Origin: a virus
Taxonomy: Duplodnaviria; Caudoviricetes
Strand: one strand, 5' to 3'
IMG/VR virus record: IMGVR_UViG_3300038679_000357
Location: 64,001-128,000 of that record
DNA length: 64,000 bases
Below the pieces are notes generated by a model. It searched no databases, was not told the DNA's origin, and was given only the letters and a program-made list of their open reading frames with translations. A program made the translations under genes and the position numbers. Shown in pieces: positions 3,356-56,137 of this stretch (positions are counted from its first letter, which is position 1; the number at the start of each line of letters is the position of its first letter).

Positions 3356-3381
3356 AGGACAAACAGAGAACATTTTAGAAT
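3356..3381 (+). promoter_or_regulatory. Putative SigH-type promoter (AGGA-N18-GAAT)
   Basis: AGGAcaaacagagaacattttaGAAT, 35 nt upstream of ATG 3417, in the divergent gap next to dnaE. Confidence 0.6.
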
Positions 3382-3416
3382 ACATCATCAGGAAGCTTTT
3401 TCAAGGAAGAAACGAT

Positions 3417-3902
3417 ATGATCCCAGACGACACCGGTAAACCATTTTCCACAATATCTGTCGACATTGCTACGTATGACGGTGGCTATAATACCGGCTAT
3501 AAACATTCAAGGTCAGTCAATCTTAAAAAAGCAAATCCTGGGCAACCGACTGAGCCAGTAGTTATACGCATGTTCGTAAATAATGCCAGAGCAATCAAGA
3601 ATATAAAAATAGCCGTAGTTGAGTCCAATAATATAACCGTTTCATCATCTGGAACGCAAAATCCAGATGGCAGTATGACCGGCGGCAATGCGGGCATTTC
3701 CCACTCAGTGACGCCGTCTATTCCCATAACATCATATTTCAAAGGATACAACACTACTGGAACTCCAACCGACCCGAACAATGTTTCCGTCGAAAATGGT
3801 ACAAAAAACAGCTCTGAATACATCGCACTGAACGTAACAACCCCTAATTTCATCTGCGAAGGATATCTATCCTACAGGTGGTTCTTTGACTTGGTGGAAT
3901 AA
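3417..3902 (+). CDS. Hypothetical protein, beta-rich, probably virion-associated
   Basis: ORF track starts at 3321 overlapping the dnaE start; ATG 3417 (MIPDDTGK) has an AGGAAG SD and is more likely; Gly/Ser/Thr/Asn-rich composition. Confidence 0.65.
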   Translation: MIPDDTGKPFSTISVDIATYDGGYNTGYKHSRSVNLKKANPGQPTEPVVIRMFVNNARAIKNIKIAVVESNNITVSSSGTQNPDGSMTGGNAGISHSVTPSIPITSYFKGYNTTGTPTDPNNVSVENGTKNSSEYIALNVTTPNFICEGYLSYRWFFDLVE

Positions 3903-4631
3903 ATGTCAATCGATATAAAGACAATACATAGTCTACCCGTTACGTCAGCAGTTTTTCAGCATCTTGGATACGTTTCGTTTTCAGCCGTCAAGCGAGAGAT
4001 GCTATATGCGGTATGGGAATCAGCTCCACTCGATGGAACGGAAGGGCTAATATCTTGGACGTCGTTCAATTTCTCGATCTTGAAAAACTCAAATGCAGAT
4101 ATGATCTACGTATACTGGAAAACATCCGACACAGAAGATATGTCGGCGGAAAAATGGTCAGCTCCAACATCAAATAACTCCGGATCAATCAAGTCAACAA
4201 AAAGATACCTGGCGCTCAGGATCGTCATTAAAACGCCAATTTCCATTCCATATAACTACTATGGCTCCACAATAGGTCCGGTTATAAGCAATCTTACGAT
4301 AGCGGGAGTCGCAACAGAAAACGCCTCGCTGCTCTTTACAAAGACATACGACCTTGGCTTCTTCCCAAAATCAATCGTCACCACAGCAATTGCTGACGTC
4401 CCTGATGGATCTACATTGGATATCGGCATAACAAGTCTCGACAGTATTGATCCAGACGACTATCAATTCATTCCTACAGGATCTGTTGTCAAACTGAATG
4501 AACTGGCAATCACAGGGACCAAACTAAAATTGATGCTGCGAATGTCTGGCAGTGGAGATTCAAAAGTAGTTGTTCATGAATTCGCTGCCATGTTCTCTGG
4601 GGAAGGTCAAATACGACTTAATCAATCCTGA
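3903..4631 (+). CDS. Hypothetical protein, probably virion structural
   Basis: 242-aa ORF abutting the previous gene; W-x-S-F...YWKTSD...W...KRYLALRIVI...PVISNLTI resembles the post-vWA module of the 37405-44589 protein. Confidence 0.65.
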   Translation: MSIDIKTIHSLPVTSAVFQHLGYVSFSAVKREMLYAVWESAPLDGTEGLISWTSFNFSILKNSNADMIYVYWKTSDTEDMSAEKWSAPTSNNSGSIKSTKRYLALRIVIKTPISIPYNYYGSTIGPVISNLTIAGVATENASLLFTKTYDLGFFPKSIVTTAIADVPDGSTLDIGITSLDSIDPDDYQFIPTGSVVKLNELAITGTKLKLMLRMSGSGDSKVVVHEFAAMFSGEGQIRLNQS

Positions 4632-7051
4632 TCAGCACAACTGCAAAGGTGAAGATTTCTAACCACCATATCTGGAATAACCAAATTTCCCGTGCCAATC
4701 ATAATCATTTCCTTGGTATGAGTGCTTCTGGCTCGAATTAAACTTAACTTTGACGCATTATGAATCAACCTAGCATTACCAACGACATGAAGCATTGAAG
4801 CCGCTCTTGTCATAGCGGTGTAAACAAGTTCTTTCTTCATCATAATAGTGTGTGAGTTTGGGGCTACAAACACAATGGTATTTGCCTGCGAACCTTGAAA
4901 TTTATGAACAGTGCAACACCAACACACCATAACGTCGTCAATTTGCCGTTTAACATACTTACAAATCTCTGGATGCATCTCAATGCCATTCACTGGCGGC
5001 GAATCATAACGAACAACAATAAACTTCTCCTTGCGCCCCTGCTGACTGATTTCTTCACCACAATCAATTACAGTCCCGATGTTACCATTGAAAACGTCCT
5101 TCTCATAATCGTTGACGATCTGCATAACGCGATCCCCAACATAGAACTTACGCTGGTTGTAGTTGATGGATTTATCCCTTGAATCATCAAATAAAATAGC
5201 TTGTATCGCATCATTCATCTCATTTACGCAAACTGCACCACGTTTCTTCATGGATGCGATAACCTGAAAGCCATCCATTGTATTATTATTGCGGATGTAA
5301 TCGCGCATTATACTTAATACACGCTGTCGAATCATCTCTTCGTTTTGAGACTCATAAAATGAGATATCAGTGGCGTCATCCGGGAATGAGTCGAACACTC
5401 CCTTTGCCATCTCATCCGCAACTTGCGGGATATAGCTCGTTTCACTTTGACGATGCACGATATTAAGTTTGATTACATTCGCCGCTTGAGAGTCAATAAT
5501 GTCTGATAGAAAATTCCCTGGAGAAACACTAGGCAATTGTTGAGGATCTCCAACAAACACAACATTCATATTCGAACAATCGCTTATCGCCTTAATGACC
5601 GCAACCATAGTATCCAATCCAACCATGGAAAATTCATCAATAACCAAAATATTACACTTCAAAACGGGATCTTCTCCCTTCCCCTTCACACCTGGGAAAA
5701 TTCTCAAGGCGCGATGAATTGTCATTGCATCACAGCCGGTTTTATTAGAAAGAACCTTAGCTGCCGCTCCGGTTGGAGCCAAGAAGGTCACAGTCAGGTA
5801 TTTTTTCGATGCAATTGTCTTAATACATTGGCAGATAGTGCTCTTACCTGTGCCACCACCACCAGTAATAACCGTTAACCTATTGACAAAAGAGCTGAGA
5901 ATGGCATCTCTTTGACACCTATCAAGCGTAATATCCTTTCCCGTCCACCTCGAAACATGTTCCTGGGCAAGATCAACGTCATCTTCATCAGCCGTGACGT
6001 ACGACTCCGACCGAGAAATATCAACAATACCCTTGGCTATAAACCGCTCTGCCTCAAAAATCTTTGGAAGATATACAAAAGTACGATTGAATAGTTTAAG
6101 CGTAACAAATGAAGTCTTTATACTGTCTGAGAAGACCTTCGCAAACGTCCCGTTTTCTTGAAAGTCGCTCAAAAACTTTCCGCACTCACGCGCAAGCCTA
6201 TCGATTTCCATGCACAAATTACCTTCCCGCACCCATGCATTCATGACATGCGCAACACAAGCGGAAGTACGATGAACCGAGTCAACATTTCCTATTCTGT
6301 GGGCGAAATTGTCAGCAATGTGAAAGCCCACCTCATGAACTTCTGCCACGAGATAGGGGTTTCGCTCTAACTTGCGTCTTAAATCCTTGCCAAAAGCTTG
6401 AAAAACAACCCCAATCTTATTCATCGGAAAGTCATTTGCGACTAACCACATATATGTATCGCGCATGGCTATATCACGGTTCCACGCGACAGCAATATGC
6501 CTTGCGCGATCTTCCGTAATCCCACTAATCTGAGTCAACGCCACTGCGTCGTTACTCATCGCCTCGGCTATACTTTCTAGCCCATTCCCGCCAAACATAC
6601 TGATAATCTTATTGGATCTGATAGGTCCAACATGCGGCAACTTATCAAGATACTTCCTTAACCCAAAAGCATCCGCCAAGCCTTCTATGTAGTAAAAATC
6701 GACATCAAATTGCTTTCCATATTTCGGATTTTCAACAACCCTTCCGGAGAACATATATGTAACCAAAGGGTTTATCACATCGATTTCGATGCGGATAATT
6801 ACACAGAATTTCCTTTTCAACCATTCGTTCGGGAACCCCATATCATCTGGCATGAGTTCATCTGACTTTGACGCATCAAGCCAGGCGTCTACGACAAGAT
6901 AATCCCCCTCGCCGCCGTCAAAAATTGGTTTCTCAGAGATTCTGCATGGAAGAAGTATCCTTTTTGAACGATCAACAGCAGCATCGACACTTCCAGTGGT
7001 GTCTGTATCAATCAGATCGTGCTCCAGAAAACCTTTCTCTTCCTGTTCCAT
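4622..7051 (-). CDS. recD2: RecD2-like SF1B DNA helicase
   Basis: N-terminal OB/HhH region (KYGKQF, LPHVGP, NPY), TGGGGTGKST, APTGAAAK, TIHRAL, IDEFSM, VGDPQQLPSV, GDRVMQIVNDY, TVHKFQGSQ, YTAMTRA. Confidence 0.92.
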   Translation of the reverse strand: MEQEEKGFLEHDLIDTDTTGSVDAAVDRSKRILLPCRISEKPIFDGGEGDYLVVDAWLDASKSDELMPDDMGFPNEWLKRKFCVIIRIEIDVINPLVTYMFSGRVVENPKYGKQFDVDFYYIEGLADAFGLRKYLDKLPHVGPIRSNKIISMFGGNGLESIAEAMSNDAVALTQISGITEDRARHIAVAWNRDIAMRDTYMWLVANDFPMNKIGVVFQAFGKDLRRKLERNPYLVAEVHEVGFHIADNFAHRIGNVDSVHRTSACVAHVMNAWVREGNLCMEIDRLARECGKFLSDFQENGTFAKVFSDSIKTSFVTLKLFNRTFVYLPKIFEAERFIAKGIVDISRSESYVTADEDDVDLAQEHVSRWTGKDITLDRCQRDAILSSFVNRLTVITGGGGTGKSTICQCIKTIASKKYLTVTFLAPTGAAAKVLSNKTGCDAMTIHRALRIFPGVKGKGEDPVLKCNILVIDEFSMVGLDTMVAVIKAISDCSNMNVVFVGDPQQLPSVSPGNFLSDIIDSQAANVIKLNIVHRQSETSYIPQVADEMAKGVFDSFPDDATDISFYESQNEEMIRQRVLSIMRDYIRNNNTMDGFQVIASMKKRGAVCVNEMNDAIQAILFDDSRDKSINYNQRKFYVGDRVMQIVNDYEKDVFNGNIGTVIDCGEEISQQGRKEKFIVVRYDSPPVNGIEMHPEICKYVKRQIDDVMVCWCCTVHKFQGSQANTIVFVAPNSHTIMMKKELVYTAMTRAASMLHVVGNARLIHNASKLSLIRARSTHTKEMIMIGTGNLVIPDMVVRNLHLCSCADQD

Positions 7052-7080
7052 TCGTTTCTCTCTTGGTTGAAAAATAGAAT

Positions 7081-7100
7081 GTCCGGGATTTCTCCCGGAC
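7081..7100 (-). terminator. Putative intrinsic terminator / RNA hairpin
   Basis: Perfect 8-bp stem GTCCGGGA-GAAA-TCCCGGAC (GNRA loop on minus strand) followed by ATTCTATTTTT, between 7141-8118 and recD2. Confidence 0.65.
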
Positions 7101-7140
7101 TAAAATATCTTCAAAAAAAGAAGATTCAAGCACTATCTGT

Positions 7141-8118
7141 CTAAGCTTTTTCTCGAATCATTTTTTTGACCTGGGAAATTTTATTAGAAGTAATTTTAAA
7201 AGTCGCTTGCGTTGATACCTGCGCTCCACCGTCAATTAACTCTGATATAGCAGAAGAATCAACAACCTCAATTTTGGCATGTTCATCTAATTGCGATAAT
7301 TTTTCTTGCATTTTTGCAGTCAATGACGCCATGTACTCTTCTTTTTTTGATACAAGATCCATTGCCTGAACTTTAGTCTCATTATAAATTGCATCAAGAA
7401 TAATGCTTTCCACCAAAATAGATGATTCAGCAACGGTTTCGCGTCCACCATACGGATCGTAAGTTAACACTTTTAGAGAAGTGGTTGGAATTTTCTTTTG
7501 TTCCAGAACTGGATTGCCAGAAGAATCAAAAAGAGGTTGTTTGGTGACTTTATCTACTGCTTGCTTCATTAATGGAAGACCATTACTATCAACGCCTGGC
7601 TTGCTAACAATCCTTCCATTTTTATCAACAGATATAGTCGATAACACTATTGTGTTTTGTGCAAGCATTGTTTGAATATATGGATACCCCCCTTTCTTCA
7701 ATTTCTCAATAATCTCTGGATAAAACTTAACCAATTCACGGTTGGGGATAACTGCTTCTACATTAATTATTCGTTCGTGATTTTCCCCCTCTTTTTTCTT
7801 TCTATTAACCACGGCATCATATATTGTGATGTCTTTATTTACATTTAATGGATTTACACTCGCTGGATAATATCCAAGACCTTTTGCAGCAGCATGATCT
7901 TTATCTAATTTTGGGTTGTATACCCCTGGAGTATGCATTTGCGGATTAATAAAATTTTTCCCCGTCTTAGTGGCCAAGGCAACAAGATAATCTTTCATAC
8001 TCATATTTTTCTCTTCGCCATCAATCGTAACACTAGCCATTTTCTCAGATATACTCTTAATCAAACTTTTAGCAAAATTTGCCTCAAGCCCAAGAGAAAT
8101 GCACTTCATTCCCGACAT
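7141..8118 (-). CDS. Hypothetical Lys-rich protein
   Basis: 325-aa ORF with GAGGT SD; no recognised motif. Confidence 0.75.
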   Translation of the reverse strand: MSGMKCISLGLEANFAKSLIKSISEKMASVTIDGEEKNMSMKDYLVALATKTGKNFINPQMHTPGVYNPKLDKDHAAAKGLGYYPASVNPLNVNKDITIYDAVVNRKKKEGENHERIINVEAVIPNRELVKFYPEIIEKLKKGGYPYIQTMLAQNTIVLSTISVDKNGRIVSKPGVDSNGLPLMKQAVDKVTKQPLFDSSGNPVLEQKKIPTTSLKVLTYDPYGGRETVAESSILVESIILDAIYNETKVQAMDLVSKKEEYMASLTAKMQEKLSQLDEHAKIEVVDSSAISELIDGGAQVSTQATFKITSNKISQVKKMIREKA

Positions 8119-8156
8119 ACAATATACCTCATCTATGATTTTATCATTTAAGGCTT

Positions 8157-8182
8157 ATTCAAAACCGACAATGCTCTTTCCT
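8157..8182 (-). promoter_or_regulatory. Putative SigH-type promoter (AGGA-N18-GAAT)
   Basis: Minus strand AGGAaagagcattgtcggttttGAATaa; GAAT ends 38 nt before the A of the ATG at 8118. Confidence 0.6.
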
Positions 8183-8417
8183 ATTCGGCAACATGGCTTG
8201 ATATCAATGTAACGTGCCGAGGACGCCATCCAATCAAAGTACAGGCATGAATAAAAGATGTGGCTCGTATTTCAGCTACTTTATTGTCGAACCTGGTATT
8301 ACGAATGACGTAAACCGTCTTCCAATCCTTCAACTTTTCCGAATAGCTATTGGAGCGCAGTTTTGATTGATCGATCTTATCTACTCCATCAGAAGATCTC
8401 TGTTTATTCTTTGACAT
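8181..8417 (-). CDS. Hypothetical protein
   Basis: 78-aa ORF in gene-sized gap, coupled to 8419. Confidence 0.65.
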   Translation of the reverse strand: MSKNKQRSSDGVDKIDQSKLRSNSYSEKLKDWKTVYVIRNTRFDNKVAEIRATSFIHACTLIGWRPRHVTLISSHVAE

Positions 8418-8418
8418 T

Positions 8419-9105
8419 TCAATATTCCTTGCTGATTGATTGTAATTTTGAAAAAATACGGTTTACGAAAGCCTTCTCATTTTCCGTACTACACTCCCCC
8501 ATTAGACTCTCAAACAAATTGATATATGCACTTTTCGCTATAGTAAACACTTCACCATGCGCTTTCATTTCTCCAAGCATGTCTGCACGAAAGCGTAGCA
8601 GCTTTTCCATGGTTGCAGTAATTTTACACGTAGAATCTGTTTTAAGCTTCTCTACGGTAGCTGCTGGGACTTCTGGGTCTTCCAGAGCATTGATCGACAC
8701 AAGTCTTTCATTCAATGCTGTCAAAGTCATTTCCAACTTATCAAGAGTTGACAACCCAGATGAATTCAAGAGAGAGATTCTATGGATATATTCTCTTTTC
8801 CGTAATTCTTCACCACTGGAGCCAAGATGATGTTCCATATGATGCTTGATGACTGGAATGGTATATTTTTCTCCAGCGTCGGTAAAAATATGACTAACGG
8901 TATCGGCGTTACGACTGTCAGTCCATTCCTTCTCAGCTCTTTTTCTCACTGGGCTGCAGCATAGGGGGCAATTCTGATCATGGAAAATGCCATCACCAGA
9001 AAGATTGATCATTCTCATGAGATAGGCTTCTACATCTTCCTGCCCGCTAAGAATGCTCTTGATGCCTCGGTTATTCATCCCGACCATATCAAATCCGTTG
9101 GACAT
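8419..9105 (-). CDS. C2H2-type Zn-binding protein, possibly terminase small subunit-like
   Basis: CPLCCSPVR...IKHHMEHH followed by helical/coiled-coil region; similar layout to putative TerS N-termini (inference). Confidence 0.4.
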   Translation of the reverse strand: MSNGFDMVGMNNRGIKSILSGQEDVEAYLMRMINLSGDGIFHDQNCPLCCSPVRKRAEKEWTDSRNADTVSHIFTDAGEKYTIPVIKHHMEHHLGSSGEELRKREYIHRISLLNSSGLSTLDKLEMTLTALNERLVSINALEDPEVPAATVEKLKTDSTCKITATMEKLLRFRADMLGEMKAHGEVFTIAKSAYINLFESLMGECSTENEKAFVNRIFSKLQSISKEY

Positions 9106-9142
9106 AACAAATTCCTTTGAGCAACCATTTTTCGTTGCTTAA

Positions 9143-9152
9143 ATTATACAAC
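9143..9152 (-). promoter_or_regulatory. Putative class II promoter -10 (GTTGTATAAT)
   Basis: Intergenic, 37 nt upstream of ATG 9105; same 10-mer recurs at 16086. Confidence 0.55.
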
Positions 9153-9164
9153 GGAGTAGTGGAT

Positions 9165-9470
9165 TCAGCTCTTCTTTTTGTTTTTTGGACTATTGAGGAT
9201 TTGAATCGCTCGATCAACATCGGCGCGAAACACGTAGAAGGGCTTGGATTTAACGGATTCGATCAATGAATCATACATTTCATCATTAGGTAGCCCTAAC
9301 GACTCAGCAATTTTTTTAGTGGCACGCAATACAGCAACCACATCCCCTATGCGTTGATGCATGGCTAGTTCCCGGCAATTTCCGAGAAAAGCAGTTATCT
9401 CCTCTGCCGGAGATATTGAGAGCTTATCAGATGGAGATTCTTTCGGCATCGACGACGGTCTCCATGTCAT
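9165..9470 (-). CDS. Hypothetical protein
   Basis: 101-aa ORF; true start may be internal (MPKESPS). Confidence 0.6.
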   Translation of the reverse strand: MTWRPSSMPKESPSDKLSISPAEEITAFLGNCRELAMHQRIGDVVAVLRATKKIAESLGLPNDEMYDSLIESVKSKPFYVFRADVDRAIQILNSPKNKKKS

Positions 9471-9864
9471 CGGCAGACAAGATTTTTCTCAGGGATCTAG
9501 CCGCAATTTCGATTGCATCCTCGCGAGTTGCGGCTGTTACTGGAGATAGACCATATGTGGACGCACTCCATTTCTTCCCTCTGCCGTCACGGATTGTAAA
9601 ATCCCAACGGTACATCTCATCCACTTCCGTACCAGCAAAGACATCAACAAAGGCATCTACAGCCTGGGGATCAACAGAATGGCTATCAATCGACACCAAT
9701 TCTTTAATCTCATCAGTTGACAATCCCATCTCCCGATACGAACTTGCCATTTTCTCCAGCTTGGCTCTATTGGATGCCGCCTTCGACTCCATTGCGTCCA
9801 TCTGCTTTCGCAGACTATCCGCGAAGAGAAAACTTTGCATCACCCTATTGCTCAAACTGCTCAT
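9427..9864 (-). CDS. Hypothetical protein
   Basis: 145-aa ORF in co-oriented run. Confidence 0.7.
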   Translation of the reverse strand: MSSLSNRVMQSFLFADSLRKQMDAMESKAASNRAKLEKMASSYREMGLSTDEIKELVSIDSHSVDPQAVDAFVDVFAGTEVDEMYRWDFTIRDGRGKKWSASTYGLSPVTAATREDAIEIAARSLRKILSADDMETVVDAERISI

Positions 9865-9881
9865 GTTTTCTTCTCTCTATT

Positions 9882-10898
9882 CTATTTCCGACCTTTTACT
9901 CGTATCAATTCTTTGATTCTTTCAGCATCAGCTATATTCCTGCAAAAAGCTTGACACCGTCCGAATCTCACATCGTTATTATTCAAATTCAAGCTAGAAG
10001 TGATAATTTCCTTTGAAGATCCTGCTATTTTTTCTCCAACGAATACAGAATGTTTCATTTCATCGGTTGGACGCTCCAATTCATAGGTGAATGGCTTCCC
10101 GTCAATAACGAACTTATCACTGACGTCAAACCATCTTCCAGCACGAAATGCCTTAACAGTAAATACGCCGCCAGCTTCTGGAACGAAATCAATCGCCTCA
10201 TTCCCATTAAAGTCACTTTTAGCCGTAACAGAGACTTTGGCAACAAAGCCTCGCTTGTCAGCCTCACCAATAAAAACGGCGCGAATGCATGGTTTACCGT
10301 TATTTGCCACAGTCTCGATCGCGTTAACAACATGCATTTTATATTTTGCGACAGTGTTGGACATAACAGAATTAGCATTCGACAATAAATCCGCCTCACT
10401 TACGTCCAATCCGCTAAGATACTTTTCTTTCTCAAACGGCTCCACCATAAACCCCAGCATAGATTGTACTTCTTCAATGCCGCGAATCATCCTGCATAAC
10501 ATTTTTTGATCGTCGTCAGAGGCGGATTGAAACAATGCAATTGCATCATTTTTTATACTTTCAAGAATACGAGAAATCTTACCATCATGCGCATTAAGCT
10601 TAGAATTATCTGTCGACTCCTTTCCGGAACCACTTACTTCATTCTCACCATTCCCTTTCGCCGCACGCTTTCGACGCATTTTACGAATAGCCTCAGCGGG
10701 AGACATAAAAGCGAACTCTTGTTCGCCATCATTGCCAGCAGACTCTGAATTCATGTCAGATGGAATAACTCCAGCCATACGTTGCATAAACCCGTCAATA
10801 AGCAACTTCTCGGTATTAATTTCTTCATTATGATTTGGGTCTACGCCACGAATGTTATTGATAAGTTCTCCGTCTTCTCTAGCTACCCGATTTGCCAT
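9882..10898 (-). CDS. Hypothetical protein
   Basis: 338-aa ORF with GAGGT SD. Confidence 0.75.
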   Translation of the reverse strand: MANRVAREDGELINNIRGVDPNHNEEINTEKLLIDGFMQRMAGVIPSDMNSESAGNDGEQEFAFMSPAEAIRKMRRKRAAKGNGENEVSGSGKESTDNSKLNAHDGKISRILESIKNDAIALFQSASDDDQKMLCRMIRGIEEVQSMLGFMVEPFEKEKYLSGLDVSEADLLSNANSVMSNTVAKYKMHVVNAIETVANNGKPCIRAVFIGEADKRGFVAKVSVTAKSDFNGNEAIDFVPEAGGVFTVKAFRAGRWFDVSDKFVIDGKPFTYELERPTDEMKHSVFVGEKIAGSSKEIITSSLNLNNNDVRFGRCQAFCRNIADAERIKELIRVKGRK

Positions 10899-10900
10899 TT

Positions 10901-11125
10901 TTACCTCAATGATTTCTTTGTTTTTTCACGGGAGTTGCAATTCGGACACCCGTTAATAAAAGTTTTCTCAGACGCAACAAAAGAGCAATTACGGCACTCC
11001 GCATATCCACGAGACGGATCATGTGGAGTCTCAAGGGTAGATAATGCTTCCTTTCTCAACACGCGCCCTGTATGAGTACGCCCCATTACAGACTGCAGGT
11101 CGATGATACGTTGCCAATCGCGCAT
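10901..11125 (-). CDS. Small Zn-ribbon protein
   Basis: CRNC-x11-CPNC. Confidence 0.6.
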   Translation of the reverse strand: MRDWQRIIDLQSVMGRTHTGRVLRKEALSTLETPHDPSRGYAECRNCSFVASEKTFINGCPNCNSREKTKKSLR

Positions 11126-11799
11126 TCAAACACCATATAGGTTTTTATTGTAGCCGCACGGACAGTTTCAGAGAACTGAGACTGAGTCATCTGTCTTATC
11201 TTCCCTGGAGTCAGTCCGTTATCCTTCATAAACTTTGGCGGAATCAAAGCCTCTTTTGATGTACTGGACAATGACCCAAACAATGCGCTATCGGTTTGAA
11301 TGGTCAACATTCCAAGAAGAGTTCTTGCCAACATATAGGAATCGCCAACATTGTCATCGTCGAAATTCTCTCCAGTATGTTGCTTAATTAAATCAAGATA
11401 TAATCTCTTTTCGGCTTTTTTCGTACCCTTTACCGCCGCGCCATTCTGTATGCAAAATTTCTTATGGGTATTTGGCGGAATTTTGTGATACGAAGCAATC
11501 CTTCCCGATTCCACAGCTTTTCTGAACAGCATCAAATCCACACAGCCGCCAAGGGCTCCCAGGTCAAAAATAGATCTCCCCTTGGACGAAAACGAGAATT
11601 CTTCCCTGGTGATTTTCATAACTCCATCAAATTTATCAATAAATAGAGATATTCTCTTACAGATTTCATCCAATCTTTCCACCCCAGTCAACTTAGTTTT
11701 AACCAACTCAGTCGACAAAACCTTACATTCAGGAGTTAGGGCGCACATCGCCGTCCCCGTCAATGATTGGTCGATTCCAATGTAATATATCGAAGCCAT
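11086..11799 (-). CDS. ruvC: RuvC-like Holliday junction resolvase
   Basis: YIGIDQSLTGTA, REEFSF, DLGALGG, IPPNTHKK, DDDNVGDSYMLA; start moved to ATG 11799 (AGGAG SD). Confidence 0.8.
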   Translation of the reverse strand: MASIYYIGIDQSLTGTAMCALTPECKVLSTELVKTKLTGVERLDEICKRISLFIDKFDGVMKITREEFSFSSKGRSIFDLGALGGCVDLMLFRKAVESGRIASYHKIPPNTHKKFCIQNGAAVKGTKKAEKRLYLDLIKQHTGENFDDDNVGDSYMLARTLLGMLTIQTDSALFGSLSSTSKEALIPPKFMKDNGLTPGKIRQMTQSQFSETVRAATIKTYMVFECAIGNVSSTCSL

Positions 11800-12778
11800 C
11801 TTTTCTCCTACCATAGCAAATAGCTGCGGCTTTTAAGTACAATCTATCTATCGAGTATGGCAACTTGCCATTTCGATGAAGGAGAAAATCAGATGAAGAC
11901 TCCTTCAATAATGATTGTACACCGTCGCCAATCCTATTTACGATCTTCATGGCACAATCGACCATAAATTTCGTTGGACGAGCTTTTACTTTGGTGGGGG
12001 GCTCATCCCACCAGTGTTCGTTGAATTTGTCAATATGAACTTCCTCAAACTCCCCATCAAAAGAATTCACTGATCGACACCCTACAGATAACAATTTACT
12101 AATAGCCATGTCAACAGATTCTATCCCCTTAGTAGCCCAATGCTCATTGATTTCTCGAATGGAGGAAGAAAAGTCGCCATTGGCTAACGCGGTGTAAAGA
12201 CTGAAAAATCTAAACGAACTATCTCCAACTACACATAGATTGACATCTCCCTCAGTAATATGACCGTTTGAAACGACCAGTAACTTGTCCACTTCGCAAA
12301 TCAACATTGAAACATCTTCATGACCAACAATTGAAACAAGCATGTTAGCAGCCTTAACGTCAATCTTTCCTCCGGTAGAGATCGCTCGATCAATTACTAA
12401 ATCAACCGCGCTTTCAAACCCATTTAATAATCCAAGACGAATAATCCTTACTGCATTTTCCGGCATTGACTTAATTATGGACATGCACTTTGCGGAAATT
12501 GAATCAACCCGGCAAATCAACATACATTGCGAAGAAACGTTTTCGATCAATAACTTCAACCGATTGCAAAGACTCTCAGAAAACAACGACTCTGGGACAA
12601 TAATGATTTTATTTCCAAAAAAAATGGATGGGATGCACAATTCGTCATCAACACTTTCTATAGAGTCAATCTCAATGCAGCAACCAGAATCGCCAAGAAA
12701 CATTTTCTTAACGTTTTCCATGGGACTATGAGTGAGTCTATGATCGCCTACGAAAATAGCCGCAATTGTTCGAGCCAT
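11729..12778 (-). CDS. holA: DNA polymerase III delta subunit (clamp loader)-like
   Basis: IDVKAANMLVSIVG..VSMLICEVDKLL...ITEGDV..CV.....FSLYTALANGD matches delta domains II-III; directly downstream of dnaN. Confidence 0.7.
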   Translation of the reverse strand: MARTIAAIFVGDHRLTHSPMENVKKMFLGDSGCCIEIDSIESVDDELCIPSIFFGNKIIIVPESLFSESLCNRLKLLIENVSSQCMLICRVDSISAKCMSIIKSMPENAVRIIRLGLLNGFESAVDLVIDRAISTGGKIDVKAANMLVSIVGHEDVSMLICEVDKLLVVSNGHITEGDVNLCVVGDSSFRFFSLYTALANGDFSSSIREINEHWATKGIESVDMAISKLLSVGCRSVNSFDGEFEEVHIDKFNEHWWDEPPTKVKARPTKFMVDCAMKIVNRIGDGVQSLLKESSSDFLLHRNGKLPYSIDRLYLKAAAICYGRRKDGFDILHWNRPIIDGDGDVRPNS

Positions 12779-12779
12779 A

Positions 12780-13940
12780 TCAAATTCCGTATTCTTGTTG
12801 GATAACAACAGAAGTCTGTATGATGGCATTAAATCCATCGCTCGACAATATTATGCCAATTGGCCAATTGGATTTTTTCTCGTTTTTCTGTATGGAAAAT
12901 TCCATTTTCACATCAGAGATACTCCTCCTTACAAAATCCACCATCAACACAGGCGGAATGGCAAAATCATAAGGCGGAATATCAGGCTTTGTCGGCGTAG
13001 CGTATTCGACGGCGCTATGATATTTAGTCCCCCTGGAAGAAACCGACATGAAATTTATCGCTCCATCGCGCACTCTAACGTACATTTCCGTTGAATTAAT
13101 TCTGTTACACGCACCTATGGATTCCAGAAGTTTTTCCGAAGACAAAATGAATCCTGAATCTGTAGCAACACCAATCAATCTAAGAAAATCTGGAGATTTC
13201 TTTTCAAGTCCTTCAGGAAGGCACATTCTAATGCAGGAAGAAGTATTACGTACGTAAACCTTTGTGCCGCTCATTCCCACACTAATCAAACCATCATCGA
13301 ACACTTTTCCAATATATTTGACCATCATTGCCGGTATGAAAAATGGTTTAATCGGGGCGTGATCGCGGATATAAGTGTAGCTAAACGCCCGACCAGTCCC
13401 GCCTCCAACAAATAACCGTTTACCGTCACATCGGAAAGAAAAGTTATTTTTCACTTCTTCTGCATCAAACGCAGTGAACGGTGCAACGCGCTGCATTGCC
13501 GCAACCAAACCTTTATAATCCATTTCACACCATTCAATGTCACTACCAGGAAATTCAAAGTCACTGTACATCTTGCGATTAATACACTGTAAAGATAACC
13601 TTACCTTACCGCTACATAAAACAATCGAGCCATTCTGATCGGCGTCAGTAACAACATGCTCGACAAGGATTTCTTCCTCTTTTGGAAAGAATCTCATAAC
13701 ATCCTGCATCTCTTCAAGAGACAATGACGCCGACCCTTCAACTGCCTGCATGTCAGATATTGGAATAAATGACATTGACGCCATGGATGGTCCGCTTGTC
13801 AGTACCTTCAGCTTACCTTCAGAAAGAGCAATATGCCCATAACCACGGAATGTTGACTTCAACATAGGGTCAGCTTTCAACGACACTCCGCCACGCGCCA
13901 TAACAGCTAAAAGGTCTTCCTTAATCACCCTGAATTTCAC
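12780..13940 (-). CDS. dnaN: DNA polymerase III beta sliding clamp-like
   Basis: ~386 aa three-domain length; GKLKVLTS, YSDFEFP, LVAAMQRV.PF, pattern of beta clamp; GTG 13940 has GAGGAG SD; context with holA/dnaX. Confidence 0.7.
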   Translation of the reverse strand: MKFRVIKEDLLAVMARGGVSLKADPMLKSTFRGYGHIALSEGKLKVLTSGPSMASMSFIPISDMQAVEGSASLSLEEMQDVMRFFPKEEEILVEHVVTDADQNGSIVLCSGKVRLSLQCINRKMYSDFEFPGSDIEWCEMDYKGLVAAMQRVAPFTAFDAEEVKNNFSFRCDGKRLFVGGGTGRAFSYTYIRDHAPIKPFFIPAMMVKYIGKVFDDGLISVGMSGTKVYVRNTSSCIRMCLPEGLEKKSPDFLRLIGVATDSGFILSSEKLLESIGACNRINSTEMYVRVRDGAINFMSVSSRGTKYHSAVEYATPTKPDIPPYDFAIPPVLMVDFVRRSISDVKMEFSIQKNEKKSNWPIGIILSSDGFNAIIQTSVVIQQEYGI

Positions 13941-13950
13941 GATAAACTCC

Positions 13951-14922
13951 TCAGTCTTCGTCAAACAGGGGAATTTTCACATCGCATTGTGTTCTCAGCG
14001 AAGTAGCCTTAGCCCTCACCCTGATGAGAGCATTATCAACTGACTTTTCGTTATACCGCCGCTGATATTTTCTTGACACTTCTTTTGCGATGTCCCTGTA
14101 TGACCTCTTCTCAAGATGCATGATGAATACATCATATTCAAGCGGGCTTAACGTTTTTCCAAGTAGTTCCTTGGTCATTCGAACATCTTCATTACAGCAC
14201 ATATCCTTCAAAAAATCAAACTCATCCCCAAGGACATTCATTAAACAACCATTATCTTCTGATTCATCCTCTGACGGAAACGCTTGTTCAAGTGGAATTG
14301 ATCGATTCAACGGTTGATCACGACGTCGATTTTTAGCTGTATTCAATAAGGTAATAATATACCTTTTCATGCACATCTTAGAAAAATTCACAAAACTCAT
14401 GTTTTTATCTGGATTGAACTTGTTTATTGCCCGGCGACACAGTGCAATACAGGCTTCTTGATAAACATCCTTACCTTCCATTCCTGGGATAATAAACTTT
14501 CTATAGGCGGTGGCGAACACAAATTTATGCATATACGCCAAAATGCGGTTAAAAATCACATCATCTTCACCATATTTTTGTATATACATGGCGAATGCAT
14601 TCATCATTGGTTTCACCTCGACTGGCGGCATATCTCTGAAATCTTTCTCTGGAATATCAAGATATGCATACACTACGTCTTTGGTGATTTTACTCCCCTC
14701 AGACTTGTTTTTTTTCTCTCTTTTAGCCTGCTTTTTTAAAAGCTTCTTTTCTACCTTCTTTTCCGCCTTTTTCCCAGCCTTCTTTCTCTGCCTCTTCTCC
14801 GGCTTCGCGGGCTCTCTTTTTGCTGTTTTTTTTATCTCTCTTTTTTTGCGCTCTTTAATGACCTTTTTTCCCGACTTCTTAGATATCTTGGATTTATTTC
14901 CAGAACCCTTTTTTCTAGGCAT
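13951..14922 (-). CDS. sigH: SigH (Spo0H)-like sigma-70 family factor with Lys-rich N-terminal extension
   Basis: IPGMEGKDVYQEACIAL, FNPDKNMSFVNFSKMCMKRYIITLL, PLNRSIPLE, LSPLEYDVF..HLEKRSYRDIA, KSVDNALIRVR parallel B. subtilis sigma-H regions 2-4. Confidence 0.88.
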   Translation of the reverse strand: MPRKKGSGNKSKISKKSGKKVIKERKKREIKKTAKREPAKPEKRQRKKAGKKAEKKVEKKLLKKQAKREKKNKSEGSKITKDVVYAYLDIPEKDFRDMPPVEVKPMMNAFAMYIQKYGEDDVIFNRILAYMHKFVFATAYRKFIIPGMEGKDVYQEACIALCRRAINKFNPDKNMSFVNFSKMCMKRYIITLLNTAKNRRRDQPLNRSIPLEQAFPSEDESEDNGCLMNVLGDEFDFLKDMCCNEDVRMTKELLGKTLSPLEYDVFIMHLEKRSYRDIAKEVSRKYQRRYNEKSVDNALIRVRAKATSLRTQCDVKIPLFDED

Positions 14923-14933
14923 CTCCTATAACT

Positions 14934-14954
14934 CCGCTCTTGAATATCGAGCGG
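14934..14954. other. Inverted repeat / hairpin in the sigH leader
   Basis: CCGCTC-N9-GAGCGG between the TATAAT box (14968) and the SD of sigH. Confidence 0.45.
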
Positions 14955-14967
14955 GCGTTGAAATTTT

Positions 14968-14977
14968 ATTATACGAT
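14968..14977 (-). promoter_or_regulatory. Putative class II promoter -10 (ATCGTATAAT)
   Basis: Intergenic, upstream of sigH. Confidence 0.5.
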
Positions 14978-14980
14978 GAC

Positions 14981-16066
14981 TTATGCCTTACTGCATAAGC
15001 TTGCTACGAGTGTCTCAAGCACCCACTTTTTGTTATGGTTAACTGTCATTGAGTATTCACATTCTGTAAACCTGGCGGAAAAGCAAAGTAAACGCTTCAG
15101 TCCGCATGATGAAGCAATATTAGATACCAGATCCTTTTCCGAATCAGCCATTGTATATCCAGTTTTCGCCTCAGCAGCCATAAGCATTGCATTCCTAAAA
15201 ACCTCAGACAAGCCACTTACAAGCATCTGCACATTTATTCCGGTTGACACCACTGTCTCGACAGCATCCAGCGCGGCTCCGGCGCTATTTCCAGCAATAT
15301 GCCCTGCAATTTTGTACAAATCATCACGACCAACCAGTCCAAGCATTTGCCTGGCGGCGTCGGCAGTCAATTTACCGTCCGACTGAACAAGAAGGCTCTG
15401 GAAAAAGTTTAAGGCAATACGCATATTGCCTCCACTAATCGCAGACACTTGACGACAAACATCAGGCTCAACATTAGCATTGATGTGAACGGCGAGTTTC
15501 TTCAAATAGTCAGCTACAATACTGTCGCTGATCGGAGCGAAGGGAACTAAAACAAATCTGGACGCAAGGGTTGACGGAATCTTTTGATATTCCGAAGTAC
15601 AAAGAATATACATCACATTGCTGTTTGGCTCCTCGGTAGGCTTGAGGAGAGAACTTATAGCGTCTTTTGTTAAAGAATGGGCTTCATCAATGATAAATAC
15701 CTTTTTTCTTAACGAAGCTGGGCTATATAAACTGGACTCTATAATTCTTTTTATTTCCTCCTTACCTCCATCTGATGCACCGTCCAATTCACGGACGTCC
15801 ATTGCCATATCCATTTTTATTGACTGACACGAAGTACACTCACCACATGGATTGGCTTCCCCATCCTTTCGATTCAAACAATTAACAGACATAGCAAGAA
15901 TACGAGCAGCAGTAGTTTTCCCAGATCCAGAATGACCGACAAGCAAATAAGCATGGTGAAAGGCGTTCTTTTTCGCATATTGCGAAAGAATCTTCACGGC
16001 AGCTTTTTGCCCGACCATCTTTTCGAACTTATTTGGGCGGAATTTACGGTAAAAAACTTCTGACAT
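14981..16066 (-). CDS. dnaX: DNA polymerase III gamma/tau (clamp loader ATPase), gamma-length
   Basis: YRKFRP..F..MVGQ, HAYLLVGHSGSGKTT, NC...CGECTSC Zn module, IIDEAHSL, LLKPTEEP, KIPSTLASR, GGNMRIAL. Confidence 0.93.
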   Translation of the reverse strand: MSEVFYRKFRPNKFEKMVGQKAAVKILSQYAKKNAFHHAYLLVGHSGSGKTTAARILAMSVNCLNRKDGEANPCGECTSCQSIKMDMAMDVRELDGASDGGKEEIKRIIESSLYSPASLRKKVFIIDEAHSLTKDAISSLLKPTEEPNSNVMYILCTSEYQKIPSTLASRFVLVPFAPISDSIVADYLKKLAVHINANVEPDVCRQVSAISGGNMRIALNFFQSLLVQSDGKLTADAARQMLGLVGRDDLYKIAGHIAGNSAGAALDAVETVVSTGINVQMLVSGLSEVFRNAMLMAAEAKTGYTMADSEKDLVSNIASSCGLKRLLCFSARFTECEYSMTVNHNKKWVLETLVASLCSKA

Positions 16067-16085
16067 ACTGACTCCTTCTTCGGCA

Positions 16086-16921: not shown

Positions 16922-16923
16922 GC

Positions 16924-44612: not shown

Positions 44613-44622
44613 ATTGTACAAC
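44613..44622 (-). promoter_or_regulatory. Putative class II promoter -10 variant (GTTGTACAAT)
   Basis: Intergenic, 23 nt upstream of ATG 44589. Confidence 0.4.
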
Positions 44623-52287: not shown

Positions 52288-52297
52288 ATTATACGAC
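52288..52297 (-). promoter_or_regulatory. Putative class II promoter -10 (GTCGTATAAT)
   Basis: Intergenic, 62 nt upstream of ATG 52225. Confidence 0.5.
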
Positions 52298-52789: not shown

Positions 52790-55700
52790 TTAAGCCAATA
52801 TCGACCCGCCAGTAGCTGTCAACTCATTAGCTGTAGTTCCAGTTGGTTGAGTGCTACTCTTTCCTATTGTAGATCCTTGCGTTGCGTATAGTCCATAAGT
52901 TGGATTCGTTCCAGTTGATGGATTTGATCCGGAAACCACCACGCAAGTATCTGCATATATTCCGCGATAAAGATTTGATACATAGTTGTTATTTATATTT
53001 GAATTACATCTATTGGCTCGGATACCAACATTCGTATTAGTCTTTGCAGCAGCAAGAATATAGTTTGCAGACACGGTTGCAACCATACCTAGCGACATAT
53101 AAACTCCAGAACAATCATTTACATTTGGGACTCTGATTTTTAAATTTCGAACAATAACAAAGCAGGCACATCGTTCAAACCAAAGCACGCCATTGGCTGC
53201 TCCAGCCCATGTATTAGCATCGATATATACCGCTTGAGTTGTATACGCGGCTGTTCCTTCAGTAGTATCACCCTGAAAGTATAAAAACCCTCCACTAAAA
53301 TCTCTGACAGCCACATTGGAATTCCAAGTGTGAGTACCATTAGCAAACTGGAATGTAAGTGAATAACCATCTAATTCATTTGGGCAATTTGATACTATAG
53401 TTTGAACTTGAGCAGCAGTCATAGATGTTGGTATATTAATCGTAACTCCGGCTCTCAATCTAATGAAACCACCATTTGTTCGTAAGAACGGGGATACAGA
53501 CCAGGACGGAACATCTCCTCCGCTAATTGACAATAATCCGGCTGTAGTTACTGAAAGCCCATAATTACATGCGGTACCAGTCCCTCTATTATCGTTGGAA
53601 TTTGCTAACGACCTATCGATATGGATTGCACGGTCCATATTGCTTAAATAGTTTCGTGATAGATCACCTGGTCCGACTGCAAAAAATCTTATTCCAAAAT
53701 TGGTGTTTGTTTTACCAGAACCTAAGATATAATTATCAGCAACAGTAATGTAACCTGAATGATTCGCAGCATATACCCCATTAGTGTTCGCTACATCTGG
53801 AACAGTTATCTTTAAATTTTTAAGATTAATTTGAACACTATTCCTAAGAAGTTGAATAACACCTGCTGTGCCACCAGTTCCACCCCACGATCCAGCATTC
53901 AAATGAACAGCTTGAGATGTGTATGGTCCACTTCCTTCTGAAATATTTCCTTGAATATTTAATGTTCCATTTGAAAAATTAATAAACTGTAATTGACCGT
54001 TCAATGTATATGCGCCATCGGAAAATTGAAAACTTACCGTAGATGACTTTAAGTCTCTTTGCTGTAAATTAATTGTATTCTGCATTATAGCAGCGGTCAT
54101 AGAGTTGTCAAAAGTAATAGTGTGGTTTGGCACGTTGTATATAGTCCCAGATCGACCGTCATACCCAACTGCAAACGGACAATAATAACCGTTTAAAAAC
54201 GTAGTCACATCGGTTATGCTAATTATTCCGCCATTAATAACATAATGACCATACAATGGCGCAGTTCCTGTACTTGAATTTGCGTTGCACCTTAATTGAG
54301 CACATGAACTAACGATACCATTTTTAACATTACTGACGTAATTCTCCGTGCAAGACCCCTTAGAGAACATCCAATACAATCCAGAACATTCAGTTGTATT
54401 ACCAACTCCAAGAGAATAGCAAAATGACACTTCACAATATAAAGTTCCATAAATAAATGCACCCATACAATTCAAAAGATCTGGATGCGTAAACTTCATC
54501 CACTTAACATAGCATAGGCAAGCGCAATTATTGACGTTTATATTTCTTACGCCCGCGCTCAGTCCAGACCCATTGAGATGAACCGCTTGATTGGTATGCA
54601 TTGTTGTCGCTTCGGAAGAATTACCCTGGATTATTAATGATCCACCATAAAAATCATCATAATTATGCCCAGAAGTAAGTGTATATGTTCCGTCGGCATA
54701 CTGGAATGTTAAAGTGTAAGAATTTAGATTTTTTGGCTGAGAGTTAATGATATCTTGAATCTGAGTATCAGACATTGAGTTGTCAAAATTTACAGTAATA
54801 TCTTCCGTCAACTTAACATCACCAACAACCGATCCAGAAAGCTCCTCAGTTACCTGAAGAAATGTTTTTGACACCCCTCCATATATCTTTGTTCCACCAG
54901 ATCTCCATCCTACAACATGTATGGTGTCTCCATAAACCAAGTCCAATGTTTTATCCAAGTTAACAAAAGAATTTCCAACAGATATGACAGCGCCAGATTC
55001 AATAACTGCGGTTGAAGTATTTTTGTATACGATCCCATACCCAGATGTCGTATCAAACATCAATTGCGCAACAATCCTATATTTTGCATCTTTCGGGCAA
55101 GTCCATATTCCGGTTGTATTATTATAAGCGGAGTCTATATCAATAGGCTCCGAGTCAAATATCACAGTTGTTTCAGTTTCATTGGAGATAGTTTGATCAG
55201 TTGACCGATAACCATCGACACGCAATATTTCACGACTGAAAGATCCGCCAGAATTCACCCCGTAGCCACGACAAATTAACTTACCAGAAGTGAAATCGGA
55301 AGAACTAAGAGAATATATCGTAACCGAAGCAATCGCGCTAGTGCTCTTCCAGAACCCACCAACCTTATAATTAACGACACCAGCATTTTCCGAGGTCGAA
55401 GATTCATAATCCTGACCATCACCAACATACGCTTTATAGTAAGACGTTTCCTTGAATGATGGAACTATTAACTTCAATGCCCCGCCATAGTTCGCTGATG
55501 CCGTCGACCCAGGGATAGCTCCTATAACCCCATACGACAAGCCAGCTCCATCATTGGATAAACCACCTTCAGTATTGTCAGCGGTGGCATACCGACCAAC
55601 TGAATCATAATTACTGCCAGTATCTCCATTGAATCTGATACCAATATAATCCTGATCAGCAGAAACGTCAGATCTTCCATAAATTAATATTTCTAAATCA

Positions 55701-56080
55701 TCTCCAGAGATATTATTCACAGGAATTGTTATCGAATTTACACCCGTTAAATCAGCTTCAAATTTCTGCTGAAAATTGAATCCAGACTCAGCAATCTGAG
55801 TCAATGCAGATTTTCGTATAAGCCCATCGCTAGTTTTTGAAGAATCGTAGTAATTATCTATGATGGACGGAATTTCAGTATCAACCCTCGACATTGCCGC
55901 TTGAAGATCGGCGTCAGACGCTAATATCCCAGTGAATGACGTGTTATCCACTGATATATCTTCGGCATTAGCGTTTGTCTCATCAAGAACCTTATTCCCA
56001 TCACGAGTCAATCCATCAACGTCGGACGATAATCCCTTACCGTTGACGTTGGCATCAAGAAAACCTACATGTTTTACCAT
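52790..56080 (-). CDS. Tail fibre / receptor-binding protein: C1q-like domain plus three beta-helix repeats
   Basis: IRFNGDTGSNY..WKSTSAIASVTI module, QTISNETETTVIFD..NTTGIWTCPKDAKY C1q-like, three (FD/IP)xSM..Q..I..P..L....TFQ(F/Y)ADG modules with parallel-beta-helix Asn/Gly/Cys ladders. Confidence 0.75.
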   Translation of the reverse strand: MVKHVGFLDANVNGKGLSSDVDGLTRDGNKVLDETNANAEDISVDNTSFTGILASDADLQAAMSRVDTEIPSIIDNYYDSSKTSDGLIRKSALTQIAESGFNFQQKFEADLTGVNSITIPVNNISGDDLEILIYGRSDVSADQDYIGIRFNGDTGSNYDSVGRYATADNTEGGLSNDGAGLSYGVIGAIPGSTASANYGGALKLIVPSFKETSYYKAYVGDGQDYESSTSENAGVVNYKVGGFWKSTSAIASVTIYSLSSSDFTSGKLICRGYGVNSGGSFSREILRVDGYRSTDQTISNETETTVIFDSEPIDIDSAYNNTTGIWTCPKDAKYRIVAQLMFDTTSGYGIVYKNTSTAVIESGAVISVGNSFVNLDKTLDLVYGDTIHVVGWRSGGTKIYGGVSKTFLQVTEELSGSVVGDVKLTEDITVNFDNSMSDTQIQDIINSQPKNLNSYTLTFQYADGTYTLTSGHNYDDFYGGSLIIQGNSSEATTMHTNQAVHLNGSGLSAGVRNINVNNCACLCYVKWMKFTHPDLLNCMGAFIYGTLYCEVSFCYSLGVGNTTECSGLYWMFSKGSCTENYVSNVKNGIVSSCAQLRCNANSSTGTAPLYGHYVINGGIISITDVTTFLNGYYCPFAVGYDGRSGTIYNVPNHTITFDNSMTAAIMQNTINLQQRDLKSSTVSFQFSDGAYTLNGQLQFINFSNGTLNIQGNISEGSGPYTSQAVHLNAGSWGGTGGTAGVIQLLRNSVQINLKNLKITVPDVANTNGVYAANHSGYITVADNYILGSGKTNTNFGIRFFAVGPGDLSRNYLSNMDRAIHIDRSLANSNDNRGTGTACNYGLSVTTAGLLSISGGDVPSWSVSPFLRTNGGFIRLRAGVTINIPTSMTAAQVQTIVSNCPNELDGYSLTFQFANGTHTWNSNVAVRDFSGGFLYFQGDTTEGTAAYTTQAVYIDANTWAGAANGVLWFERCACFVIVRNLKIRVPNVNDCSGVYMSLGMVATVSANYILAAAKTNTNVGIRANRCNSNINNNYVSNLYRGIYADTCVVVSGSNPSTGTNPTYGLYATQGSTIGKSSTQPTGTTANELTATGGSILA

Positions 56081-56111
56081 TGACTAACCCCGCATAAAAT
56101 CTAATAGAATC

Positions 56112-56137
56112 ATTCAAAAAACTATATTAAAAATCCT
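56112..56137 (-). promoter_or_regulatory. Putative SigH-type promoter (AGGA-N18-GAAT)
   Basis: Minus strand AGGAtttttaatatagttttttGAAT, 31 nt upstream of ATG 56080. Confidence 0.58.

Follow-up and report, generated by a model that had tools for sequence, protein, structure and literature searches.

We examined a 64,000-nucleotide (nt) stretch of phage DNA, referred to throughout as the window, for the gene of a SigH-like sigma factor and for the promoters that this factor may read. The window covers bases 64001-128000 of the 255,142-bp virus record IMGVR_UViG_3300038679_000357, which represents an uncultured huge phage from a groundwater metagenome (its 255-kb genome is labelled G000 below), is classed in IMG/VR as a provirus and has a CheckV completeness estimate of 97%; the DNA past the left end of the record is still phage-like in look. 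The guanine-cytosine (GC) content of the window is ∼42%, and its genes lie nearly all on the minus strand. From 1 to 30.5 kb they form a replication module holding a DNA polymerase, a RecD-like helicase/exonuclease V and DnaB-like and other helicases, together with a clamp loader, a 5′-3′ exonuclease and an AAA protein that were assigned via syntenic relatives, while from 31 kb on they encode very large proteins without a family, glycosyltransferases and a tail-fibre-like product. The sigma gene and the four predicted promoters of interest, with gene lengths in amino acids (aa), are as follows:

13951-14922, minus strand: phage SigH-like sigma gene, 323 aa, matched by Pfam Sigma70_r2, the NCBIfam SigH models and PDB 3MZY.
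3356-3381, plus strand: predicted SigH-type promoter AGGA-N18-GAAT of the sole plus-strand unit, whose ATG at 3417 lies 35 nt downstream.
8157-8182, minus strand: predicted SigH-type promoter AGGA-N18-GAAT, 38 nt before the ATG at 8118 of a 325-aa gene.
33346-33370, minus strand: predicted SigH-type promoter AGGA-N17-GAAT, 37 nt before the ATG at 33308 of an 800-aa gene.
56112-56137, minus strand: predicted SigH-type promoter AGGA-N18-GAAT, 31 nt before the ATG at 56080 of a 1096-aa gene.

We verified the position and strand of all four sites, 31-38 nt upstream of start codons, as the original prediction, made from the letters of the window, had placed them. The T-run that it described just before GAAT is also seen in all four, reading TTTTAGAAT, GTTTTGAAT, GTTTTGAAT and TTTTTTGAAT in the order given above. 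The site at 33346-33370 shares sequence with the 3′ end of the 632-aa gene that lies upstream of it.

Four sites of this kind could be random matches to a short degenerate pattern, and the count over the whole window, which is not above that of shuffled sequences, speaks for such an explanation: AGGA-N17/18-GAAT has 12 matches against 7.25 expected, with 6 of 100 shuffles reaching 12, so that the motif is not enriched, and AGGR-N18-GAAT has 6 against 5.83 expected. The position of the matches and the spacing of their boxes argue against it. By chance, only ∼0.14 sites should fall 15-70 nt upstream of one of the ∼45 starts in the window, in keeping with the earlier estimate of well under one in so narrow an upstream interval, and four are observed (P ∼1.5e-5). 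We then scanned the genome for two boxes separated by Nx, with x = 8-28, splitting the matches into those 15-70 nt upstream of a same-strand start (promoter positions) and the rest. At promoter positions, AGGA-N18-GAAT was found nine times compared to a mean of 0.47 at 19 other spacings (Poisson P 2e-9), and AGGR-N18-GAAT 13 times compared to a mean of 0.68 at the same number of other spacings (Poisson P ∼6e-13). Counts off promoter positions were flat across spacings (∼12-20), and the share of matches at promoter positions was 52% at N18 versus 3.6% at other spacings. Neither the reverse-complement nor the swapped-box control of the scan gave a peak. Across all 65,536 4-mer dyads scanned, AGGA..GAAT ranks second at spacing 17/18, behind the sigma-A-like CTTG..ATAT. 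Since nine promoter-positioned sites lie outside the window, where ∼1 is expected (P 1.4e-6), the signal is independent of the sites that were first read within it. Enrichment upstream of starts across the genome had been set beforehand as a test of the prediction; it is borne out by the N18 peak, in its upstream-position part, while the whole-window count stays at chance. Together with the recurrence of the pattern in a related viral contig and the conservation of sites at orthologous genes described below, these counts make chance an extremely improbable source of the four sites.

When 13 sites were aligned, two features on which the scan had not drawn emerged: the second base before AGGA is R in 12 of 13 (P 0.002), and GAAT is followed by A in 10 of 13. 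The stretch leading up to GAAT is T-rich. Genome-wide, ∼14 sites follow the consensus R-n-AGGR-(17 or 18 nt, T-rich 3′ end)-GAAT-A and lie 22-59 nt upstream of a start in sense orientation. One-mismatch variants showed an N18-specific signal only for AGGG (4 at N18, 0 elsewhere) and weakly for GAAA, with none for GTAT. A generic sigma-70 consensus, scanned over positions 1-20000 of the window, gave 45 matches with 47 expected, which is chance level. The original prediction had given AGGA at -35 and GAAT at -10 as the specificity of sigma-H, and this agrees with the literature, where the SigH promoter is given as AGGA and GAAT with 17-18 nt spacers (PMC12456013) and the SigH consensus as RNAGGAWWW / RNNGAATWW (PMC8510167). 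The phage motif and its spacing match, with AGGA, GAAT and the 17-18 nt spacer as in bacterial SigH promoters, R at the second base before AGGA and A/T following GAAT, the exception being the base three positions before GAAT, mostly T where the consensus has R.

By homology, the phage encodes a diverged SigH-lineage sigma factor. Region 2 is matched by Pfam PF04542 (Sigma70_r2) at residues 132-197 with 26.7 bits against a cut-off of 24, and in a genome-wide search the gene scored 29.8 bits, above the cut-off, as the sole Sigma70_r2 match in the 255-kb genome. The top NCBIfam matches are SigH models (E ∼1e-24, model positions 25-196 of 201), the next-best family being SigK with 27 bits, and in the PDB a single entry was matched, 3MZY (E 6e-7), which bears the title 'RNA polymerase sigma-H factor'. 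Aligned with a Listeria-type SigH of 201 aa, the protein shows 31% identity, and both region 2 and the region 4.2 helix are conserved. This helix, NEKSVDNALIRVRAKA, lies at residues ∼290-306, and the region-4 segment KSxDNALxR noted in the original prediction is present in the 323-aa open reading frame (ORF) at 13951-14922 on the minus strand as KSVDNALIR. The Pfam r4 models had no match on the sigma gene; region 4 is nevertheless covered, as the SigH model alignments reach residue 306 and the alignments to 3MZY and the Listeria-type SigH span the helix KSVDNALIRVR. Bacterial SigH/Spo0H (Bacillus, Clostridia) is the closest family, with the helix K-S-V/I-D-N-A-L-x-R-V shared. The differences are that the phage copy is phage-encoded, that its predicted targets are phage genes rather than transition-state or sporulation genes, and that it carries ∼120 extra N-terminal residues with a Lys-rich tract, giving a protein of 323 aa compared to the ∼200-220 aa of compact SigH; the SigH models align from residue 118 at the earliest, mostly from ∼121-125. 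The Lys-rich low-complexity tract, at residues ∼5-75 (window 14710-14910, minus strand), occurs in this phage and in P0002, the relative closest to it, and in none of the other homologs. Upstream of the gene lies a further element that may control sigma expression:

14934-14955, minus strand: hairpin CCCGCTC-N9-GAGCGG in the sigma gene leader, directly before the ribosome-binding site; kept in the relatives L003 and L016, without covariation.

Profile searches detected no other sigma factor and no phage RNA polymerase in the 255-kb genome. A weak r4_2 match at 28.6 kb of the genome, considered as a second sigma, proved to be the helix-turn-helix of an HNH endonuclease. A tblastn search of phages found nothing beyond SigH-like genes of ∼30% identity, located in Listeria and faecal contigs that are unverified.

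To follow the sites across relatives, we compared a 500-kb Joint Genome Institute contig (L003 and L037; sigma 67% identical, 54% GC), the loci L016-L019 and L034-L036 (sigma 66% identical, 51% GC), the 235-kb viral contig G001 (sigma 46% identical) and five farther viral contigs (sigma 37-41% identical); the GenBank phages searched held no close DNA relative of the window. Intergenic DNA cannot be aligned between G000 and these relatives, but orthologous genes still have the boxes in front of them. For the 161-aa gene that begins the plus-strand unit, these are AGGA-N18-GAAT in G000, G001 and L037. The 800-aa gene is preceded by AGGA-N17-GAAT in both G000 and G001, so that the uncommon 17-nt spacing occurs in both, and the 325-aa gene by AGGA-N18-GAAT in G000, L016, L017 and L034, with unrelated spacer sequence. 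At an HNH endonuclease gene, the -35 box is AGGG in G000 and AGGT in G001, and an operon start after a terminator hairpin has AGGG-N18-GAAT in both G000 (243300) and G001 (127491). For the 1096-aa gene, no ortholog was found in G001. Taken alone, G001 has its own N18 peak (AGGN..GAAT, 7 versus 1.1, P 1.5e-4), and the five farther loci add four more sites, three of them canonical-looking and including T-run-GAAT-A forms. The sigma and the motif co-occur in every relative examined. As judged from sequence, the predicted SigH-type promoters form a real class that is specific in position and spacing and conserved at orthologous genes.

From homology and co-occurrence we infer, as the most economical reading, that the phage sigma rather than a host SigH is the reader of the AGGA/GAAT sites. 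We think it likely that this SigH-lineage sigma reads the ∼14 SigH-type sites as a small, dispersed regulon and not as a dedicated late or virion set. Alternatively, the promoters would be real and read by a host SigH, which would tie the phage genes to the transition or stationary state of the host, with the phage sigma acting elsewhere, for example on host SigH-dependent genes. Such a division of labour would fit a motif that equals the bacterial SigH consensus (PMC12456013, PMC8510167), a record that is classed as a provirus and a phage that carries a tandem SpoVS-domain gene. It also has precedents in host sigma-H acting on phage DNA, as with S. aureus sigma-H and prophage int genes (PMC2869324), and in phage tampering with host development, work cited in PMC10294663 reporting that phage sigF/sigG homologs alter host sporulation programmes. 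We nevertheless consider it unlikely: the simplest view of a SigH-type sigma and conserved SigH-type promoters in one phage is that they are cognate, the phage sigma shares a conserved recognition helix with SigH and is thus expected to recognize an identical -35, and the sigma and the motif come together in each of the relatives. The two readings are not mutually exclusive.

Several observations weigh against assigning the sites to the phage sigma. Were the host to encode a SigH of its own, that factor could recognize them as well. No relatives of the sigma were found in 185,579 species genomes. The protein scores 86.4 bits against the TIGR02859 equivalog (cut-off 294.8) and 86.5 bits against the NF006145 equivalog (cut-off 212), both below the cut-off, and with ∼86 bits against SigH equivalog cut-offs of 208-414 it is not an equivalog member. 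Because the score is low and the 120-aa N-terminal region is absent from SigH, the specificity of the sigma may have drifted. The phage sites differ from bacterial SigH promoters in accepting AGGG and in having a T-run instead of R three bases before GAAT, where the base is T in 9 of 13 sites and not the R of the Bacillus consensus. At orthologous genes, a 1-nt insertion in L034 gives N19 upstream of the 161-aa ortholog, and L003 and L037 have AGGA-N18-GAAA upstream of the 325-aa ortholog. The gene starts on which the positional counts depend come from a simple in-house ORF caller and are crude. Finally, no RNA runs were found to hold the phage DNA, all sequencing runs with this DNA being groundwater DNA metagenomes.

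The genes behind the sites bear on what the sigma would be for. The targets in the window, and further sites of the class in the genome, are:

3417-4631, plus strand: two-gene target unit of the 161-aa (3417-3902) and 242-aa (3903-4631) genes, antisense to the flanking replication genes and beside the DNA polymerase.
7141-8118, minus strand: 325-aa target gene, no family found, with a hairpin directly after it.
7081-7100, minus strand: intrinsic-terminator-like hairpin GTCCGGGAGAAATCCCGGAC with a T-rich tail, separating the 325-aa gene from the RecD-like helicase.
30906-33308, minus strand: 800-aa target gene where the fibre/glycosyltransferase block meets the replication block, no Pfam or PHROG family.
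52790-56080, minus strand: 1096-aa target gene with a weak C1q match (E 8e-4, below cut-off).
171585, 193310 and 220181 of the genome, outside the window: further AGGA/GAAT-class sites.

Orthologs of the 161/242-aa unit occur in G001, L034 and L037, and neither protein has a Pfam or PHROG family. The AlphaFold model of the 161-aa protein is a beta-sandwich of low confidence (predicted local distance difference test score, pLDDT, 55), and a fold search of the PDB with it returned no match at E<=0.001. With its terminator-like hairpin, the 325-aa gene is probably monocistronic. The ortholog of the 800-aa gene in G001 is 703 aa long. A 458-aa neighbour of the 1096-aa gene matches a tail-fibre PHROG, and the 1096-aa product is possibly a fibre or adhesin, as far as the weak domain match goes. 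In Pfam, PHROGs and the ESM Atlas, nothing informative was found for the 161-, 242-, 325-, 800-, 317-, 225-, 115-, 445- and 272-aa products. Terminators were mapped with a home-made hairpin scan, which was too sparse to define operons except for the 325-aa unit; it also showed terminator-promoter junctions at 193.3 kb and 243.3 kb of the genome. At 193310-193383 of the genome (minus strand, locus L027), a terminator hairpin is followed by GTTGTACAAT and then AGGA-N18-GAAT before the 317-aa gene, a tandem arrangement that suggests that this gene is strongly or doubly regulated.

The original prediction went on to propose a late sigma whose regulon would consist mainly of virion genes, and two of the four window sites do stand before large genes that belong to the fibre-like block or adjoin it, namely the 1096-aa gene with its C1q match and the 800-aa gene. 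We did not find this to be the pattern of the regulon. The ∼14 targets are scattered over all modules of the genome; two are HNH endonucleases, one (the 325-aa gene) is a terminator-bounded gene within the replication module, another is the antisense cassette by the DNA polymerase, and only the 1096-aa gene looks fibre-like, on its weak C1q match. Four sites fall within the first 47 kb at the left end of the genome, where short genes and genes for HNH endonucleases lie, none of the capsid, portal, terminase or tail genes is shown behind a site, and the giant 2394- and 2349-aa genes and the 519-aa gene follow a different motif, described below. A dedicated late sigma is thus quite unlikely, and the assumption that a phage sigma stands for late virion genes does not hold here. 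HNH endonuclease genes with a SigH-type promoter of their own lie at 2307-2873 and 32073-32666 (minus strand) of the genome and at 113871-114407 of G001, and the two G000 copies have AGGR-(N)TTGTCG in common just after the -35 box.

The AGGA/GAAT class is not the commonest promoter-like motif of this phage. GTTGTAnAAT, the most over-represented motif, occurs 22 times across the genome, with 15 copies lying upstream of starts, and in the window GTYGTAnAAT occurs seven times versus 1.12 expected, each time on the coding strand and without a -35 element. The seven boxes and a variant before the sigma gene are:

9143-9152, minus strand: GTYGTAnAAT box GTTGTATAAT upstream of a 228-aa gene; kept in L003 and L016.
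16086-16095, minus strand: GTYGTAnAAT box GTTGTATAAT upstream of the clamp-loader (dnaX-like) gene, which itself precedes the sigma gene.
24799-24808, minus strand: GTYGTAnAAT box.
35402-35411, minus strand: GTYGTAnAAT box.
44613-44622, minus strand: GTYGTAnAAT box GTTGTACAAT, 23 nt upstream of the 2394-aa gene.
52288-52297, minus strand: GTYGTAnAAT box GTCGTATAAT, 62 nt upstream of the 2349-aa gene.
57699-57708, minus strand: GTYGTAnAAT box GTTGTAGAAT, 17 nt upstream of the 519-aa gene.
14968-14977, minus strand: ATCGTATAAT, a variant of GTTGTAnAAT, 45 nt upstream of the sigma gene.

This class, and not AGGA/GAAT, is what precedes dnaX, the giant tail-fibre-like genes and, in variant form, the sigma gene. 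Given its abundance, and given that boxes are kept in L003 and L016, it could be argued that the phage sigma recognizes these -35-less boxes (GTTGTATAAT), with the AGGA/GAAT sites belonging to another factor. Comparison with the relatives makes this very unlikely. G001 has the sigma, yet it is essentially without the 10-mer, holding only five copies with one upstream of a start. The position of the 16086 box before the dnaX-like gene is occupied by GTTGTACAAT in L003 and L016 and, in the farther relatives, by extended -10 boxes of the TG(n)TATAAT type, which are typical of primary sigma factors. Further, the sigma gene itself lies behind such a box, and a SigH-like region 4.2 helix would be expected to need a -35 element, which the boxes lack. 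Because the 10-mer is near-absent in sigma-bearing G001 and TG(n)TATAAT-type boxes replace it in farther relatives, we read GTTGTAnAAT as probably the extended -10 promoter class of the host primary sigma, sigma-A, an assignment drawn from motif comparison.

If the phage sigma is the reader of the AGGA/GAAT sites, transcription could proceed in two steps. Host RNA polymerase with the host primary sigma would transcribe most phage genes, including the dnaX-sigma region, from the -35-less extended -10-like GTTGTAnAAT boxes. The phage sigma would then bind host core polymerase, its region 4.2 helix KSVDNALIRVR reading AGGR at -35 and its region 2 reading GAAT at -10, such that a small, dispersed and delayed set of units would be switched on. 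This set would comprise the antisense two-gene cassette by the DNA polymerase, the 325-aa gene, the 800-aa gene, the fibre-like 1096-aa gene and the HNH endonuclease genes. Both the timing and the transcription start sites of the AGGA/GAAT units are ones that we infer.

The kind of system is a familiar one, a phage alternative sigma with cognate promoters. Phage sigmas that redirect host RNA polymerase include those of SPO1 for middle and late genes, T4 gp55 and those of phiEco32/7-11, and jumbo phages without an RNA polymerase have been described (PMC7824862, PMC13401047, PMC8948821). The present phage resembles these systems (SPO1, T4 gp55, phiEco32/7-11) in encoding a sigma, in having no detected RNA polymerase and in carrying a phage promoter class across its genome. 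It differs in that the sigma is of the SigH lineage and has apparently kept the ancestral bacterial promoter specificity, and in that the sites are few (∼14) and mark no clear temporal or structural module. A nearer likeness, that of a Firmicute developmental sigma family in phage genomes, is offered by sigF/sigG-like sigmas, for which PMC10294663, citing Schwartz et al. 2022 (PMC9429907), reports KEGG K03091 matches in viral genomes; sigH is not mentioned in PMC9429907. Those studies concern effects on host sporulation, whereas in the present phage the set of cognate promoters is part of its own genome. S. aureus sigma-H likewise acts through a SigH-type promoter on phage DNA (PMC2869324); in that case the sigma is the host's and the target is a single conserved region upstream of int, whereas here the sigma is the phage's own and the sites are many. 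What stands out in the present case is the SigH-lineage descent together with a specificity that is apparently retained.

To our knowledge, almost nothing is known of the transcription programmes of uncultured huge phages. Here, sequence alone suffices to match a sigma with a predicted promoter class, whose motif agrees with the specificity of the bacterial ancestor of the sigma; this yields testable promoter-sigma pairs along with a second promoter class that is probably of the host sigma-A type. In bacteria, the SigH regulon governs entry into stationary phase, competence or sporulation. It is conceivable, though we hold it to be doubtful, that huge environmental phages forming a clade (contigs of 90-500 kb) acquired a sigma of the SigH lineage, kept its ancestral specificity and use it to run both a small, conserved phage regulon and the host SigH regulon, with the Lys-rich extension and the leader hairpin providing phage-specific control. 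If the phage sigma did read host SigH promoters, this would be a new route to interfere with stationary-phase or sporulation decisions of the host, and by firing the host SigH regulon the phage would gain a handle on a host developmental decision.

Beyond the four sites, the window holds weaker matches to the same boxes:

9916-9941, minus strand: ambiguous internal AGGA-N18-GAAT at the 3′ end of a 338-aa gene, 51 nt before a 145-aa gene.
9987-10012, minus strand: ambiguous second internal AGGA-N18-GAAT in the same gene end, encoding the peptide GKEI..LNLN.
59126-59150, minus strand: AGGA-N17-GTAT variant inside the 3′ end of a 335-aa gene, 34 nt upstream of a start.
63709-63734, minus strand: exact AGGA-N18-GAAT inside a 141-aa ORF, 154 nt upstream of the start of a 1139-aa gene.

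The first of these had been put forward as a weaker candidate, and its exact match and 51-nt distance stand. It is present in L003 and L016 and absent in G001, and it encodes the conserved peptide FCRN..ADxxRIK; the second recurs in L003 and L016, with GAAG in place of GAAT in G001. Because conserved peptides explain the conservation of both, they stay ambiguous. The GTAT variant, also proposed earlier, is present 34 nt upstream of a start as described, but its class has no N17/18-specific excess at promoter positions, and we rejected it as a promoter. Since the site at 63709-63734 lies farther upstream than the pattern elsewhere, it was left out of the count.

Outside the window, at 58224-58865 of the genome (minus strand; L048/L049), a single ORF with a GTTGTATAAT box, but no AGGA/GAAT motif, in front of it encodes two SpoVS domains in tandem (E 9e-22 and 5e-17); in Bacillus, spoVS is a sigma-H-dependent gene (PMC8510167). 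In the 500-kb relative, an IS605 OrfB / Cas12f-like TnpB gene (L037, 17046-18158) is inserted beside the DNA polymerase III alpha gene.

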